A stretch of DNA of 64,000 bases, from contig OY843751.1 in assembly GCA_963693055.1 (NCBI GenBank), forward strand, positions 3,232,001 through 3,296,000. The letters are read 5' to 3'. This DNA is from a bacterium. GTDB lineage: Bacteria; Zhuqueibacterota; Zhuqueibacteria; Residuimicrobiales; Krinioviventaceae. The notes beneath the pieces are model-generated. The model searched no databases, was not told the DNA's origin, and saw nothing but the letters and a program-made list of their open reading frames with translations. Within the stretch, counting starts at the first letter, position 1, and each line of letters begins with the position of its first letter. The position numbers and the translations under genes were made by a program. Shown here piece by piece: positions 3,842 through 54,428 of this stretch.

Positions 3842-4207
3842 TTAACTTTCACTTTTTCCAGAGAAAAATAAAGCAGCCCCAGCCAATGCAAGATCCTTTA
3901 GGAAACTTGGCATAGACATTTGCATTGTTTCCGGATTCAATACACCTGGGAAATGTACGAGAAACGCAAACAGAGCTAGCATAATGCCGAGTAACAAGGC
4001 AGCAAGCTTATCATATTTTTTTGCTATAATACTTATAGCCGCTGCAATTAAAGCTAACCCTGTAAAATATACCCAAAATACCTTAAAAGGCAAAAATGCA
4101 GGTACAATACCACTCATAGCACTACCATTCATTAAATGCAATAAACCAAATACAGCTAATGGTACAGCATATATTAATCGAGCTACAATTCCAGTTACGA
4201 ATTTCAT
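3842..4207 (-). CDS. DoxX family membrane protein
   Basis: Four hydrophobic helices; FGLLHL, VPAFLP, FLKDLALAGAAL; strong SD AAAGGAG. Confidence 0.85.
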   Translation of the reverse strand: MKFVTGIVARLIYAVPLAVFGLLHLMNGSAMSGIVPAFLPFKVFWVYFTGLALIAAAISIIAKKYDKLAALLLGIMLALFAFLVHFPGVLNPETMQMSMPSFLKDLALAGAALFFSGKSES

Positions 4208-4228
4208 GATGTTCTCCTTTATTAAATA

Positions 4229-4681
4229 TTAATCCCTCAAGCTATCTAAAAGCTTATTCATTGTTTTAGCTTCGCTTTCAGAGATGTTTTGAATTTTACT
4301 TTCCCAATTTATTGCAACGTTATCCAATTCAGCTAACAGATCCATTCCTTTATCTGTGATATATACATCAACAGCTCTACGATTATCATCACAAATTTCA
4401 CGTTTTACTAGTCCTTTAATTCTCAAACGTTCTACAATTCTTGAAGCGTCAGACATTTTGTCCAGCATTCTTTCCCGTATCAATTTTACAGTTACTGGAT
4501 CAGGATGCTGCCCTCTTAGAATCCTCAAAACATTATATTGTTTTGGAGTAAGTCCATAGGGTTTTAATCCTTCAACTGTTAGTTCAACAATCCAATTACT
4601 TGTGTACATGATGTTGATCAATAATTTCTGATACTCGGTTCTAAATACCGGTTGACTGATTTCGTTTTCAATTTTAACCAT
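4229..4681 (-). CDS. MarR family transcriptional regulator
   Basis: LTPKQYNVLRIL...SRIVERL...GLV.R...DNRR...ITDKG winged-helix pattern. Confidence 0.92.
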   Translation of the reverse strand: MVKIENEISQPVFRTEYQKLLINIMYTSNWIVELTVEGLKPYGLTPKQYNVLRILRGQHPDPVTVKLIRERMLDKMSDASRIVERLRIKGLVKREICDDNRRAVDVYITDKGMDLLAELDNVAINWESKIQNISESEAKTMNKLLDSLRD

Positions 4682-49527: not shown

Positions 49528-50157
49528 TTACAATTCCATCCCAAATAGTAATTCAATTCGTGTTAATTTCCAGGGCTCTCTCATATCTTCTTTTGGCAAA
49601 AAGCTATTATCATTGATTCCTTTCAAGAACCTTAAATCCAATCTGTAATTATTGTGAAAAATATCAAATTGTTTTCCTAACCCTACACAGAAGAAATTAT
49701 CATTCTTTCGCATTTGGGATGTAATATTTCCTTTCGCTTTATATTCCGTCTCTGGAAAGAGACTAGCATATTCCATTCCTACAAGATTATAATTCGATTG
49801 TATACCCAATTGTAGATCGAGTTTCTGTATTAAATTCATTTTGAATAAAATGGGTAAAGAAAGATATTGTTTAGTATATGTACTTTGAACATACATTTCA
49901 TCGGTTGAATAATAAACATACTCATTACGAGAATAATTATATGCAAGCTCAAGGTTTAAGGACAAGCGTGATGTAATTTGTTTCTCACCAAACATACCCA
50001 TAATAAAACCTGGCAGATAATGATATTCTTTGGGTTCAAAATTTTTGTAATCCATTTTTTCAACATTCGTCCCTACTAAAATCCCATATTTTGGGAATGC
50101 AAAACTATTATTTGTAAATATGAAAATAATAATAAATAGAAATAGATACTTTTTCAA
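49528..50157 (-). CDS. Outer-membrane beta-barrel (porin/PorT-like family) protein
   Basis: Likely TTG start after GGGAG; LNLELAY, YLSLPILFK, LQLGIQ, LDLRF. Confidence 0.7.
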   Translation of the reverse strand: MKKYLFLFIIIFIFTNNSFAFPKYGILVGTNVEKMDYKNFEPKEYHYLPGFIMGMFGEKQITSRLSLNLELAYNYSRNEYVYYSTDEMYVQSTYTKQYLSLPILFKMNLIQKLDLQLGIQSNYNLVGMEYASLFPETEYKAKGNITSQMRKNDNFFCVGLGKQFDIFHNNYRLDLRFLKGINDNSFLPKEDMREPWKLTRIELLFGMEL

Positions 50158-50344
50158 AACAACTCCCCTTTCAATACTCAATTGCAATTATATAAATATT
50201 CGGTGGTCTTGGTATTTCCCCTATTAAAAATTTGCCCCTTTAGTAACATTAAAATAATGTTATCTATCCAAATTCATAAAAAAAATTAATATAATATTTT
50301 TGGTTGGGAATAGCAAAAAAATTTCAGGTTGTTTGTGCAGCATA

Positions 50345-50378
50345 AAAATAAAACGCCGCGGGACATCACCCCCGCGGC
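50345..50378 (-). terminator. Intrinsic terminator of the tRNA-Ala transcript
   Basis: Minus strand GCCGCGGG-GGTGATGT-CCCGCGGC followed by GTTTTATTTTT. Confidence 0.8.
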
Positions 50379-50412
50379 ACTAACATAAAGGAGAACATCA
50401 TGAAATGGAACG

Positions 50413-50485
50413 TGGAGCTAGGGAGGATCGAACTCCCGACCTTTTGACTGCCAGTCAAACGCTCTCCCAGCTGAGCTATAGCCCC
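50413..50485 (-). tRNA. tRNA-Ala (GGC), CCA not encoded
   Basis: GGGGCTATAGCTCAGCTGGGAGAGCG-TTTGAC-TGGCA-GTCAAA-AGGTCGGGAGTTCGATCCTCCCTAGCTCCA; G3:U70 pair present. Confidence 0.97.
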
Positions 50486-50502
50486 AGAATTTCATGAGCA
50501 AT

Positions 50503-50531
50503 ATAATACTGAATTTTCTAAAAAATGTCAA
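50503..50531 (-). promoter_or_regulatory. Sigma70-type promoter of tRNA-Ala
   Basis: TTGACA(50531-50526)-17 bp-TATTAT(50508-50503). Confidence 0.8.
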
Positions 50532-50605
50532 GGTTTTATTTTTACATTACTTTACATCGCATTGACTCATAAAAAAAGTAACCATGAGAAAATGGGAATA
50601 TAGAC

Positions 50606-52018
50606 GTTGCCTCATAATTTATGTAACTATAGAGTTATTTGGAGACATAAATTATGGGACCCAAATCAAAAAAAGAATATGCAGCCTCAATCAAAATGCG
50701 ATATCAAAAAGCAAGCAAAACAGAGAAACAAAAAATACTGGACGAGTTTTGTGCTGTATGCAAATACAATCGAAAATATGCTATTCGACTCCTCAATGCC
50801 AGGGAGCAATCAACAATCAATGTCACGTATAAAAAACGAGGGCGTAAAGTCAAATACTCTGATCCAGAAATCCTTAAAACACTAGTCTACTTGTGGAAAA
50901 AGACCAACCTTCCCTGTTCTAAAAATTTAAAAGCCATTATACCGATTTGGTTGCCTCATTATCCATTCCCTCTATCCGATAGTGTTAAAATCGATTTGTT
51001 ACAAATATCACCGGCAACCATTGATCGACTTATGAAGCCAAACCGTGCAAAATTTACCAAACAGGGACTGGCCACCACCAAACCAGGTTCAATCCTCAAA
51101 AAGCACATCCCTGTAAAAACCAATCAATGGGATGAGACAACGCCCGGTTATCTCGAAGCGGATACTGTTGCCCATTGCGGCACCTCAGTTGAAGGACAGT
51201 TTGTTTATACTGTCAACACTGTTGATATCGCAACCGGCTGGACCGAACAGCGCGCCATCTGGGGAAAAGGTGAGCGAGGCACATTGCAAGCAATTGATAA
51301 TATTGAGCATACCCTGCCATTTAAACTTCTCGGCTTTGATTGCGACAATGGCTCCGAATTCTTAAACTGGCATCTATACGGGCACTTTGTAAATAGAGAT
51401 AAACCAATCCGCTTTACAAGGTCCCGTGCTTACCAGAAAAATGACAATGCTCATATTGAAGAAAAAAACTGGACACATGTTCGGCAGTATTTAGGCTATG
51501 AGCGTTTTGATAAAATCGAGCTTGTTGATATGATGAACCAACTCTACACCACGGAATGGCGTTTGTATTTTAACTTTTTTATACCATCTGTTAAGCTGCT
51601 CGAAAAAAAACGCGTCGGATCAAAAATTATCAAAAAATATGACAAGCCCAAAACTCCTTACCAGCGGCTTGTTGAATCTGACTTTATTGATCAGAGTACC
51701 AAATCAAAATTAACCAAACAGTTTCACGCACTTGATCCATTCTTTTTGCAAAAAACTATGGTTGAAAAAATTAATCGTATTCAAAGAACAGCTTTACAAA
51801 AATAATTTATATCGTTTGTTTTATTTTACATTCTTCATATTTTATGCAAGGTGGCCTTGGGCTACCCAATTAAAATGGTCTGTAGTTATTAGATATCTTC
51901 GCACTGACAGATAGAAACGGGCGGAGACGTTTTTGGAAGGACAGAGTCTTATGATAGTCTTGTTCATTATTCCTTTTTCCTCTCTAATAACTACGGTTAC
52001 ATTTTATTATGAGGCAAC
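50606..52018 (+). mobile_element. Insertion sequence, ISNCY/IS1202-like
   Basis: Terminal inverted repeats GTTGCCTCATAAT-TT-ATGTAAC (50606-27) and reverse complement GTTGCCTCATAAT-AAA-ATGTAAC (51996-52018); flanks TAGAC/TGGAC (possible degenerate 5-bp duplication). Confidence 0.8.
50654..51805 (+). CDS. DDE (integrase core) transposase
   Basis: YNRKYAIRLL, SPATIDRL, EADTVAHCG (D), DCDNGSEF (D), NDNAHIEEKN (E), TPYQR. Confidence 0.9.
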   Translation: MGPKSKKEYAASIKMRYQKASKTEKQKILDEFCAVCKYNRKYAIRLLNAREQSTINVTYKKRGRKVKYSDPEILKTLVYLWKKTNLPCSKNLKAIIPIWLPHYPFPLSDSVKIDLLQISPATIDRLMKPNRAKFTKQGLATTKPGSILKKHIPVKTNQWDETTPGYLEADTVAHCGTSVEGQFVYTVNTVDIATGWTEQRAIWGKGERGTLQAIDNIEHTLPFKLLGFDCDNGSEFLNWHLYGHFVNRDKPIRFTRSRAYQKNDNAHIEEKNWTHVRQYLGYERFDKIELVDMMNQLYTTEWRLYFNFFIPSVKLLEKKRVGSKIIKKYDKPKTPYQRLVESDFIDQSTKSKLTKQFHALDPFFLQKTMVEKINRIQRTALQK

Positions 52019-52024
52019 TGGACA

Positions 52025-53203
52025 TTAACTCACTTTTAATTGGGATTTTGCAAACTGCAATGCATCGTTTATCTTTGCAGAATCCGGTCCGCCGCCTTGA
52101 ACAAAATCTGCCGGACCTCCCCCCTTGCCGTTGATCATGGCAATGGATTCACGAAAAACCGAACGCAGATCCAGATCTTTTCGGCTGGTAGCAAACACAA
52201 GAGCAGGATTCTCACCTGTTGTTCCCAACAACAGCGTACCCTGAGCTTGTTTGATCACTGCACTGGCTATGCGTCTTAAAACATCAATCCTGACATCCGG
52301 GTAAATATAATCCACTATTGATTGATCATTCAACTTGGCACATAATTCTTGAATAACCGATTCTTCTTTTTCTTTGTCAATCTGCTGAATGCGTTTGAAA
52401 TAGAGTTTGTTCTCGTCTGCAATTTTTTCAATCTTGGCAGGTATATCTGCAAATCCGGTTGTTAACAGCTTGCCGCTTTCAGATAGAATGGTATGATATT
52501 CCTGAAACAGTCGTACTGTCCTGCCGCCGGCTGCAAAAGTAAAACGAAAGGTCCCTCTCACACGCTCTTTGTTCAAAATTTTAATCACACCTACTTCACC
52601 GGTTGATTTTACATGGGTGCCACCGCATGGGTCCAGATCAAAATCCTCAATCTCCACCAGGCGAACATTTTCATGGATGCCGGGGATCTTGCGTAAACCC
52701 GGATTTTCTAAATCCTTTTCAGTGGCAATAAACGCTTTAACAGATCGATTTTGCCAAATGATCTGATTGGCCAACAATTCAACGGCATTAAACTGATCAT
52801 CAGTAATGTCTTGTGCATCGGTTTCGATTGTAGAAAAATCCTCACCCAAATGCGAAGCAAGCGTCTCTACACCCAACTGGTGTTTAAAACTACCGGCAAG
52901 TATGTGGAAGCCCGTGTGCTGCTGCATAAATTCAAATCGTCGTGACCAATCTATCACTCCTGAAACAGTGCCCTCGGACTTTCCCGAGTCCAGAATATGC
53001 CAGATAGTATCATCCTCTATAATTACATCAGAAACTGTCAATTCACCCAATCTACCGGTATCATGCATCTGCCCACCGGAAGTGGGATAAAACAGGGTTT
53101 TGTCCAGTTGTATCGCGCTTTTCCCCTCAATCTCTTTAACATCCAAAACCTGTGCTTGAAATTCTGTTTGATAGCTGTCATGATAATAAAGTTTTTCAGT
53201 CAC
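52025..53203 (-). CDS. alaX: Free-standing alanyl-tRNA editing protein (AlaX-L type, with DHHA1)
   Basis: FYPTSGGQMHD, MQQHTGFH (HxxxH), PCGGTH (CxxxH), GKGGG; GTG start 53203 after AAAGGA, overlapping the upstream stop. Confidence 0.85.
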   Translation of the reverse strand: MTEKLYYHDSYQTEFQAQVLDVKEIEGKSAIQLDKTLFYPTSGGQMHDTGRLGELTVSDVIIEDDTIWHILDSGKSEGTVSGVIDWSRRFEFMQQHTGFHILAGSFKHQLGVETLASHLGEDFSTIETDAQDITDDQFNAVELLANQIIWQNRSVKAFIATEKDLENPGLRKIPGIHENVRLVEIEDFDLDPCGGTHVKSTGEVGVIKILNKERVRGTFRFTFAAGGRTVRLFQEYHTILSESGKLLTTGFADIPAKIEKIADENKLYFKRIQQIDKEKEESVIQELCAKLNDQSIVDYIYPDVRIDVLRRIASAVIKQAQGTLLLGTTGENPALVFATSRKDLDLRSVFRESIAMINGKGGGPADFVQGGGPDSAKINDALQFAKSQLKVS

Positions 53204-54428
53204 GGTCGGTTCCTTTCTCTTTTTTGCCAAGCAATCTCTGCCTGCGGTGTTGCAGCTCTGGTGTGCATTCATGCATCAGTCCACGCAATTCTTCCAGCAC
53301 ACGAACACGTTCCATAGCGCGATCAACAATCTCCAGCGCTTTGATATAATCCTTTATCTGGTGTTCATAATATTTGGCCAATTCAATATAGGCAATGGGC
53401 AAAAATCGCGTTGATCGGGTAATAATCTCCAGCCACAGGGGTTCTGTTTTATCAAAATGCTTTAGACGTTTTAATATAAACGCTTGTTTTATCATCACAT
53501 CTACTGAATTATTTACTCCGGGCAAGGCATTTTGCTCACAAATGGATATTGCAAGGTCAAACAGTTCCAGATCTTCAAACGTTCGCACAACTCCCAATAT
53601 ATCATAACTGTCCACACCTGTGGGGGTCTGAAACGCTTTTGAAATAGCAACGGTAATTGTCACCATGGAGAGTATATCCATCACATTGTGTTTGAATACA
53701 GGAATGAGCGGCTCGTATTCTCCCTGCCGCAGATAATCAAAATAAATCATGGGGATTTCGTAACCCGGCACATCACCGTGGCGTTTGAATCCCAGCAAGT
53801 GTTGTTCAAGGTTTTGCAAGGTACAGGGAACCACCCGGTCCTTCCACAATCGCCGGGATGTGTGTAAAATATCCAGATGCAGATGGTTTTCCCAGGGCAC
53901 CGGTAATCGGTTTAAAATATATCGGGTTGTAAGTGTTGGCAAATCGTACGACTTGCCATTAAAACTGATAATACCATTCCGGCCCCGGAACAGTTGCGCT
54001 AGTCCCTGAAGCATGGCAGGCTCTTCGTGATAATCTCGCATAAAATATTGCTGTACCACATATTCATTGTTGTCAAAAAATCCCGCGCCAATCATAAAGG
54101 GATAGGTGCCAGTCCCTCCTGCGAGTCCTGTGGTTTCGGTATCTAAGAATATAATATTTTCCGGGGACATATCCCGCAAGTCATGGGTTTTGCCAGCATA
54201 TATGAAATCCATTGATCCGAGTTTTAAAAAATCTCCCAAAGCGCTGCCGTGCATGAAATCAAGGGGATAGCGTTTCTCTCTGAGGACAAATTCACCCAAT
54301 TCATTTTGAACAATGCTTGCACTCAACTCGGCAACAAGAGCATCCTTTTTCTCTGAACGGTCCGGTAACGGCGGTGTGACTGACACTGATTTCTGAATAC
54401 CGCGTAATTTATCCTTGATTGAGGCCAC
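53196..54428 (-). CDS. RNase H-like (DEDDh) exonuclease with TPR tail, YprB/MrfB-like
   Basis: FLDTETTGL, SFNGKSYD, HNVMDI; IELAKYYEH...RL C-terminus. Confidence 0.85.
   Translation of the reverse strand: MASIKDKLRGIQKSVSVTPPLPDRSEKKDALVAELSASIVQNELGEFVLREKRYPLDFMHGSALGDFLKLGSMDFIYAGKTHDLRDMSPENIIFLDTETTGLAGGTGTYPFMIGAGFFDNNEYVVQQYFMRDYHEEPAMLQGLAQLFRGRNGIISFNGKSYDLPTLTTRYILNRLPVPWENHLHLDILHTSRRLWKDRVVPCTLQNLEQHLLGFKRHGDVPGYEIPMIYFDYLRQGEYEPLIPVFKHNVMDILSMVTITVAISKAFQTPTGVDSYDILGVVRTFEDLELFDLAISICEQNALPGVNNSVDVMIKQAFILKRLKHFDKTEPLWLEIITRSTRFLPIAYIELAKYYEHQIKDYIKALEIVDRAMERVRVLEELRGLMHECTPELQHRRQRLLGKKEKGTDRD

Follow-up and report, generated by a model that had tools for sequence, protein, structure and literature searches.

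Sequence comparisons support the conclusion that the 3′ trailer of a tRNA-Ala(GGC) gene has complementarity, beyond what chance would give, to the starts of several genes of its own genome that are unrelated to one another. The gene lies in the window (the whole stretch of 64,000 nucleotides that was analysed) of a genome of 6.5 Mb, G000, which we compared with G001, a sister species and the only other genome of the genus. We consider it probable that the trailer acts as a young, genus-restricted, Hfq-independent repressor RNA with several targets, pairing over the Shine-Dalgarno (SD) sequence and the start codon. A broader proposal, which we hold more tentatively and at somewhat less than an even chance, is that evolution has turned the tRNA gene into the expression cassette of a new master repressor, which would directly silence about 6-12 mRNAs of stress and secreted proteins without the help of Hfq; their start regions would have converged on the trailer in a single genus, and a 5′ leader that co-evolved with it would gate part of the pairing region until processing.

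The trailer lies between the 3′ end of the tRNA and its terminator (Table 1). The sequence-only reading of this DNA had claimed a consensus promoter and a strong terminator for the tRNA transcript, and both were confirmed. As in all but 2 of the 44 tRNAs of G000, the CCA of tRNA-Ala(GGC) is not encoded. When positions 50000-50700 were compared with Rfam, the tRNA alone reached the gathering threshold and no small-RNA family was found. In the predicted fold of the trailer, a weak hairpin holds the anti-SD stretch in its 9-nt loop. When the precursor is folded with the cloverleaf imposed, its 5′ leader (50496-50489) is predicted to pair with the anti-AUG end, and the anti-SD stays open. The leader octamer was present in none of the 27 tRNA leaders from outside the genus. 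No variants of the trailer are listed in two contig runs of one sample, possibly the source sample, that cover the locus.

Table 1. Features of the tRNA-Ala(GGC) locus and of the DoxX-like gene, in positions of the window.
Feature	Position	Strand	Basis or remark
tRNA-Ala(GGC), no encoded CCA	50413..50485	-	tRNA call and Rfam
tRNA promoter, sigma70-type, 11/12 consensus	50503..50531	-	conserved in G001
tRNA-Ala(GGC) 3′ trailer with terminator, ~70 nt, candidate small RNA	50343..50412	-	sequence
Pairing region, 29 nt, antisense to upstream leader, SD, spacer, AUG and next codons of several genes	50379..50407	-	
14-nt core of the pairing region	50389-50402	-	
GC-rich intrinsic terminator and U-tract, stem 50381-50352	50343..50381	-	folds
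5′ leader octamer complementary to trailer 50406-50399	50489..50496	-	predicted 8-bp leader-trailer helix in the precursor
15-codon ORF with SD, opposite strand to the tRNA	50400..50447	+	read as mirror image of the pairing region
DoxX-like start region, exact 22-nt complement of the trailer	4201..4222	-	one of several predicted targets
DoxX-like membrane protein gene, 121 aa	3842..4207	-	weak Pfam, Atlas neighbours
MarR-family regulator gene, directly upstream of the DoxX-like gene	4229..4681	-	domain search

Several features surround the locus. An insertion sequence occupies 50558-52021, 27 bp upstream of the −35 box of the tRNA; its 383-aa ORF has a weak match to the IS481 family (E 5e-4, below the cut-off), and the element is found in 3 full and 1 partial copies in G000 and is missing at the same place in G001. 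Further upstream, on the strand of the tRNA, 52025-53272 encodes a stand-alone AlaX-like alanyl-tRNA editing protein with a DHHA1 domain. The AlaX-like gene is also found upstream of tRNA-Ala(GGC) in 15 of the 28 loci outside the genus, indicating that the tRNA locus is ancestral. The DNA just downstream of the terminator differs between G000 and G001, and the site thus gains and loses genes. In G001, a gene for a 565-aa protein with a T9SS-type C-terminal domain stands between the tRNA terminator and a beta-barrel gene (L032:10186-11883), and G000 is without it.

The 22/22 complementarity that had been reported between the trailer and doxX, over SD, spacer and AUG, is an exact one: 50385-50406 is the reverse complement of 4201-4222, with no extension on either side. 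Searched across the 6.5 Mb, the 22-mer occurs exactly twice, and among 5,244 genes no exact in-register 22-mer is common to a pair of non-paralogous starts, 20 nt being shared by 4 pairs. According to the predicted precursor fold, 8 of the 22 matched bases could be explained by the leader-trailer helix alone. An inversion between the two 22-mers was rejected as an explanation, their relative orientation being the same in G001. The name of the gene is weak in Pfam (E 0.012, below the cut-off); a first search gave no domain at E 0.001, and NCBIfam nothing at E 0.1. The DoxX identity is nonetheless backed by the Atlas neighbours of the protein, which are DoxX-family clusters at 0.95-0.96 with PF07681 in 16-34% of members.

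In the other starts that it had checked, the same reading found only the core matched, but there are starts that match the trailer as well as doxX or better. Over 29 in-register positions, the best matches of the trailer to real starts are 26, 26, 24, 23 and 23; two starts unrelated to doxX reach 26/29, and doxX itself scores 23/29, as does the gene for a Fe/Mn superoxide dismutase (SOD). By BLAST, two other genes match the trailer at 26 of 27 bases. The 22-mer, searched in G000 with up to 3 mismatches, gave 7 further matches, all of which read SD plus ATG; its near-copies are dispersed, those inspected lying at start codons, and its exact form is not. We computed pairing with ViennaRNA, using duplex on 5,244 starts from a rough in-house ORF caller and cofold on the best 300. 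By duplex energy doxX came 5th (−33.7 kcal/mol), behind a 612-aa Lcl-domain exported protein (−39.4 kcal/mol), a 131-aa exported protein (−39.3 kcal/mol), a 289-aa lipoprotein-like protein (−38.7 kcal/mol) and the Fe/Mn SOD (−36.2 kcal/mol). It was followed by an SDR, Hsp20, a thiol-peroxidase-like protein, NmrA-like proteins and a 196-aa protein whose gene follows those of an ECF sigma factor and its anti-sigma. The cofold, which takes accessibility into account, returned largely the same set, again with doxX 5th, and the five best-matching genes have no mutual similarity. The suggestion that further mRNAs could be targets fits several unrelated starts; the katG start ranks 213 of 5,244. A stress theme among the predicted targets is suggested by the Pfam labels of 17 proteins.

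Other observations were made on individual starts. Pairing at −30.3 kcal/mol is predicted, in G000 and G001 alike, between the trailer and the start of a nitrogenase component-1-type protein (L095:1672-3303). Judged by eye against the ECF-sigma consensus, the upstream sequences of two predicted targets (L080, L081) resemble ECF-sigma promoters, and a third predicted target lies in an ECF sigma and anti-sigma operon.

The signal goes beyond resemblance to an SD. Our hub score adds up, over 29 positions, the five highest in-register matches of a sequence to starts that are not paralogous. The trailer scored 122 and the real starts (5,128) at most 118, the three top-scoring ones being predicted trailer targets themselves. 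Shuffled controls, which the sequence-only reading had proposed, came out in favor of the trailer: column shuffling within SD classes reached at most 113 in 1,000 runs. First- and second-order Markov nulls attained 122 in 0 of 300 cases each, with maxima of 113 and 117. The trailer also came first among 11,808 unannotated SD+ATG sites, the best of the 11,807 others scoring 113. Because the 29 positions had partly been picked after the matches were known, ten scoring windows were run. The trailer topped both control sets, real starts and SD+ATG sites, in 7 of the 10; it lost its lead in two that enter the terminator stem and linker, and in the shortest (−12..+3) three real starts tied or exceeded it.

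After AGGAG, the 6-nt spacer that the trailer predicts is found more often than any other (5 of 190, paralogues removed), and its C-to-T variant is the second commonest (n = 3); under the null, a count of 5 was reached in 0 of 20,000 cases for that hexamer, and in 129 of 20,000 when any hexamer was allowed. As a non-circular check, starts were picked on the non-C positions, and C was found at 18 of their 40 C positions against a background of 15% (p 9e-6). Other results speak against a repressor: at these C positions there was no excess of G-U-compatible letters, avoidance of trailer pairing was not detected in a cluster of translation genes (49 ORFs, p 0.72), and signal peptides in the top 30 were not enriched above genes starting with Met-Lys (0.53 vs 0.66). 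The central idea of the earlier reading, a trailer antisense RNA that would block translation starts, is statistically supported and extended to several targets, but doxX is not its main partner.

We also compared the two genus genomes, which are about 94% alike in protein and are the only ones carrying the trailer. It is identical over 62 nt between them, and its identity (60/60) is the highest among trailers that end in a terminator, but only narrowly ahead of Leu(taa) with 59 and of Tyr, Val(gac) and Asn with 58; conservation at the locus ends at the minus-strand U-tract. As the trailer is invariant in two close genomes, covariation is not to be seen. Compensatory change between trailer and doxX leader, which had been put forward as a check, was not found: the doxX site of G001 is down to 19 contiguous pairs through non-compensatory changes. 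Target starts are only slightly more conserved than the background (4 of 7 identical, vs 31-38%). The core sites were kept in 4 genes of G001 and weakened in 1, and one site drops from 26/29 to 23/29. The stretches of G001 examined did not yield orthologues of two candidates (G000 635142 and 6191355), and a third candidate, 1666259, could be aligned with G001 only in part.

Outside the genus the picture is different. The expectation that relatives would conserve the anti-SD content in their tRNA-Ala trailers failed beyond G001, with none of 26 readable tRNA-Ala(GGC) trailers having it (28 loci, 2 of which gave no trailer). Beyond G000, the exact 25-mer was found among genome contigs in G001 only. 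A 24-mer with up to 3 mismatches has 8 and 9 matches in the genus genomes, the trailer counted in each, and 0-2 in each of the other 41 of 43 genomes. The 14-nt core, with one degenerate position, occurs 8 and 7 times in the two genus genomes; of the 41 others, 19 are without it, 21 have it once or twice and G027 has it 4 times. Orthologues there are without the sites. SOD orthologues outside the genus scored 8-18/29 in 15 of 15 scored (one locus was left out, being too near a contig end) vs 23 in both genus genomes. Values were 13-17/29 for the DoxX-like orthologues (6 of 6), 11-17/29 for Hsp20 (5 of 5) and 16-17/29 for the lipoprotein (2 of 2). The 131-aa family ranged from −14.5 to −26.9 kcal/mol (31 rows; best in-register match 21/29) and the 196-aa family from −14.7 to −27.8 kcal/mol (15 rows). 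Since the compared genes were chosen for matching within the genus, these values show a gain in the lineage and do not amount to an independent test of significance. The 131-aa gene also has a tandem copy, which G001 keeps intact (site 24/29) and which is broken in G000 (site 21/29). The broken copy (L229, G000:C1:2499006-2499382) has in-frame stops; the 131-aa family as a whole is found in 32 of the 43 genomes of the order and belongs to no Pfam family.

Wider scans returned few comparable loci. A metagenome scan for the trailer gave 2 matches, neither at a tRNA, and a viral scan one, apparently a start-region look-alike. A tRNA-anchored pattern run across the order hit 10 of 43 genomes, with 11 matches in all; 9 of these lay outside the genus, and none of the 9 had a tRNA. 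Across the phylum the pattern had 39 matches in 32 of 167 genomes; among the 30 loci inspected, 4 besides the two genus copies were at tRNAs, namely 1 terminator hairpin and 3 structured tRNA-Gly spacers. The tRNA-Gly(TCC)/tRNA-Thr(GGT) spacer is long in three genomes of two other families (L121:1523-1759, L123:1523-1681, L124:1523-1683), and these spacers share a pyrimidine-rich stretch with an anti-SD and anti-AUG look. This stretch appears complementary to the 3′ end of the spacer, and a structured spacer RNA is possible there.

The gene content of G000 is consistent with a route from precursor to repressor. In precursors that have no CCA, the cut of RNase Z falls after the discriminator. 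An RNase Z is found over the cut-off in G000, and it would free an RNA of about 70 nt with its 5′ end at 50412, whose 3′ end would be protected by the terminator. An RNase E/G-family gene is present, and RNase J gave nothing over the cut-off; the trailer RNA may then persist because no 5′ exonuclease would attack it. A hypothesis paper, in its accessible part, argues that 3′ fragments persist where RNase J is missing (PMC8406224). Hfq (PF17209) was not found in the complete G000 genome, in a search whose controls were positive in 5 of 14, and duplexes of 17-26 bases could stand in for it. Pairing over SD and AUG would block 30S loading, and, as the leader is predicted to mask only the anti-AUG end, the unprocessed precursor could act too. 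We picture a steady, constitutive threshold that would silence leaky translation until transcription of the targets is induced, on mRNAs of stress and secreted proteins such as the Fe/Mn SOD, the DoxX-like protein, the NmrA-like protein, Hsp20 and several exported proteins.

Other readings of the locus have to be weighed against this one. It is unlikely, but deserves to be taken seriously, that the trailer has no function and is a relic, left when recombination copied a start region and hairpin beside the tRNA, and that the shared motif is a genus-level, A/C-rich context for efficient starts. In the accessible part of a study in Salmonella, ACA motifs near the SD enhance translation (PMC3879156), and the motif matching the trailer is ACA-rich. 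The changing DNA past the terminator and the missing G-U excess would suit such a relic, as would a similar start in G033, a genome of another family, where one start matches the trailer over 34 nt at 91% and no such trailer is present. However, a single copied start should not outmatch every real start against the others, and the match stops where the terminator stem begins. An efficient start context also fits poorly with an exact spacer enriched beyond composition and Markov nulls, and with highly expressed translation genes that are without the motif. The lack of G-U excess would equally fit letter-specific recognition by a protein, be it CsrA-like or a DNA-binding regulator, in which case the start motif would be its site and the locus a decoy or an additional site, perhaps one read from the plus strand. 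G000 does have a CsrA gene, and the motif resembles a CsrA site. We find this improbable: the strand with promoter and terminator bears the antisense and not the sense motif, conservation with G001 ends at the minus-strand U-tract, and a plus-strand promoter was looked for at the locus and none was found. Decoy RNAs of the CsrB/RsmZ type carry several GGA motifs in hairpin loops of the transcribed strand; no GGA was found on the trailer strand, and the motif has a single GGA and no array.

The original form of the idea, a dedicated antisense regulator of the doxX-like gene that ties tRNA synthesis to DoxX, now seems very improbable. In its favor, doxX is the sole exact 22-nt match in the genome, 19 contiguous pairs are kept in G001 and the site is absent in the 6 orthologues outside the genus, but four genes pair more strongly with the trailer and the changes in G001 are non-compensatory. 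The coupling to growth rate proposed along with it found no support: stringent promoters have a GC-rich discriminator after the −10 box, and here the bases in that place are AT-rich. We give just as little credence to the plus-strand SD and 15-codon ORF as a real mini-gene, or as the opening part of an integrase gene that integration at the tRNA has split. Integrases split at tRNA att sites are known, and the ORF has a strong SD, an ATG and an upstream hairpin on its strand. Yet no promoter was found on that strand, the ancestral upstream neighbour is kept at the tRNA in the 15 loci mentioned above, and the matching starts of unrelated genes would be left unexplained. An att duplication was itself rejected, the 3′ end of the tRNA being duplicated nowhere in G000.

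If the trailer is indeed a repressor of several mRNAs, a tRNA trailer that represses mRNAs directly would extend the class of tRNA-derived RNAs. The birth of a small-RNA regulon would become datable, regulator and sites appearing together in one genus, and how small RNAs gain targets would become testable by reporters. In addition, the hub-of-start-regions statistic can find such RNAs from sequence alone in uncultured lineages that are without Hfq.

Among known systems, the 3′ETS-leuZ of E. coli is a tRNA trailer that acts as a sponge of RyhB and RybB, according to the accessible parts of the papers describing it (PMC13501541, PMC8383071, PMC5391140, PMC7154689). Our trailer, too, is part of the 3′ spacer in a tRNA transcript, and the role proposed in those parts, less noise in stress regulation, is similar. 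In contrast to 3′ETS-leuZ, which binds small RNAs, it is antisense and not sense to mRNA starts, and would thus itself be a repressor and not a sponge; moreover, its host genome gave no Hfq match, and it has no sequence relation to known families. Recent reviews, as far as their accessible text goes, consider the intracellular targets of bacterial tRNA-derived RNAs largely unresolved and list one tRNA trailer, as a sponge; tRNAs are also noted among Hfq chimeras in the accessible part of another study (PMC12235514). We found no bacterial tRNA trailer that directly represses mRNAs in the literature searched, whose coverage mostly excludes subscription papers.

The proposed use of one single-stranded region against the A/C-rich leaders or starts of many mRNAs recalls GcvB and RyhB. 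In the accessible parts of these sources, GcvB pairs with ACA-rich enhancer leaders (PMC3879156), and RyhB also represses an SOD mRNA (review literature). Both have their own promoters and regulators, need Hfq and use short seeds, whereas the trailer would be a tRNA by-product with matches of 17-26 bases in one genus. The trailer would also resemble s-SodF and RsaC, terminator-protected 3′ fragments that act in trans, and small RNAs from 3′ UTRs are proposed to arise readily without RNase J, as in G000; s-SodF and RsaC come from mRNAs, while the trailer comes from a tRNA precursor (accessible part of PMC8406224). The nearest functional parallel is the 3′ extension of pre-16S rRNA, which pairs with the 5′ UTRs of stress mRNAs in E. 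coli (bioRxiv 10.1101/2025.09.11.675593, accessible part). There too, the processing tail of a stable-RNA precursor contacts stress-mRNA leaders, but that extension is short-lived and lies beside the native anti-SD, whereas the trailer ends in a terminator and has long, lineage-specific matches.
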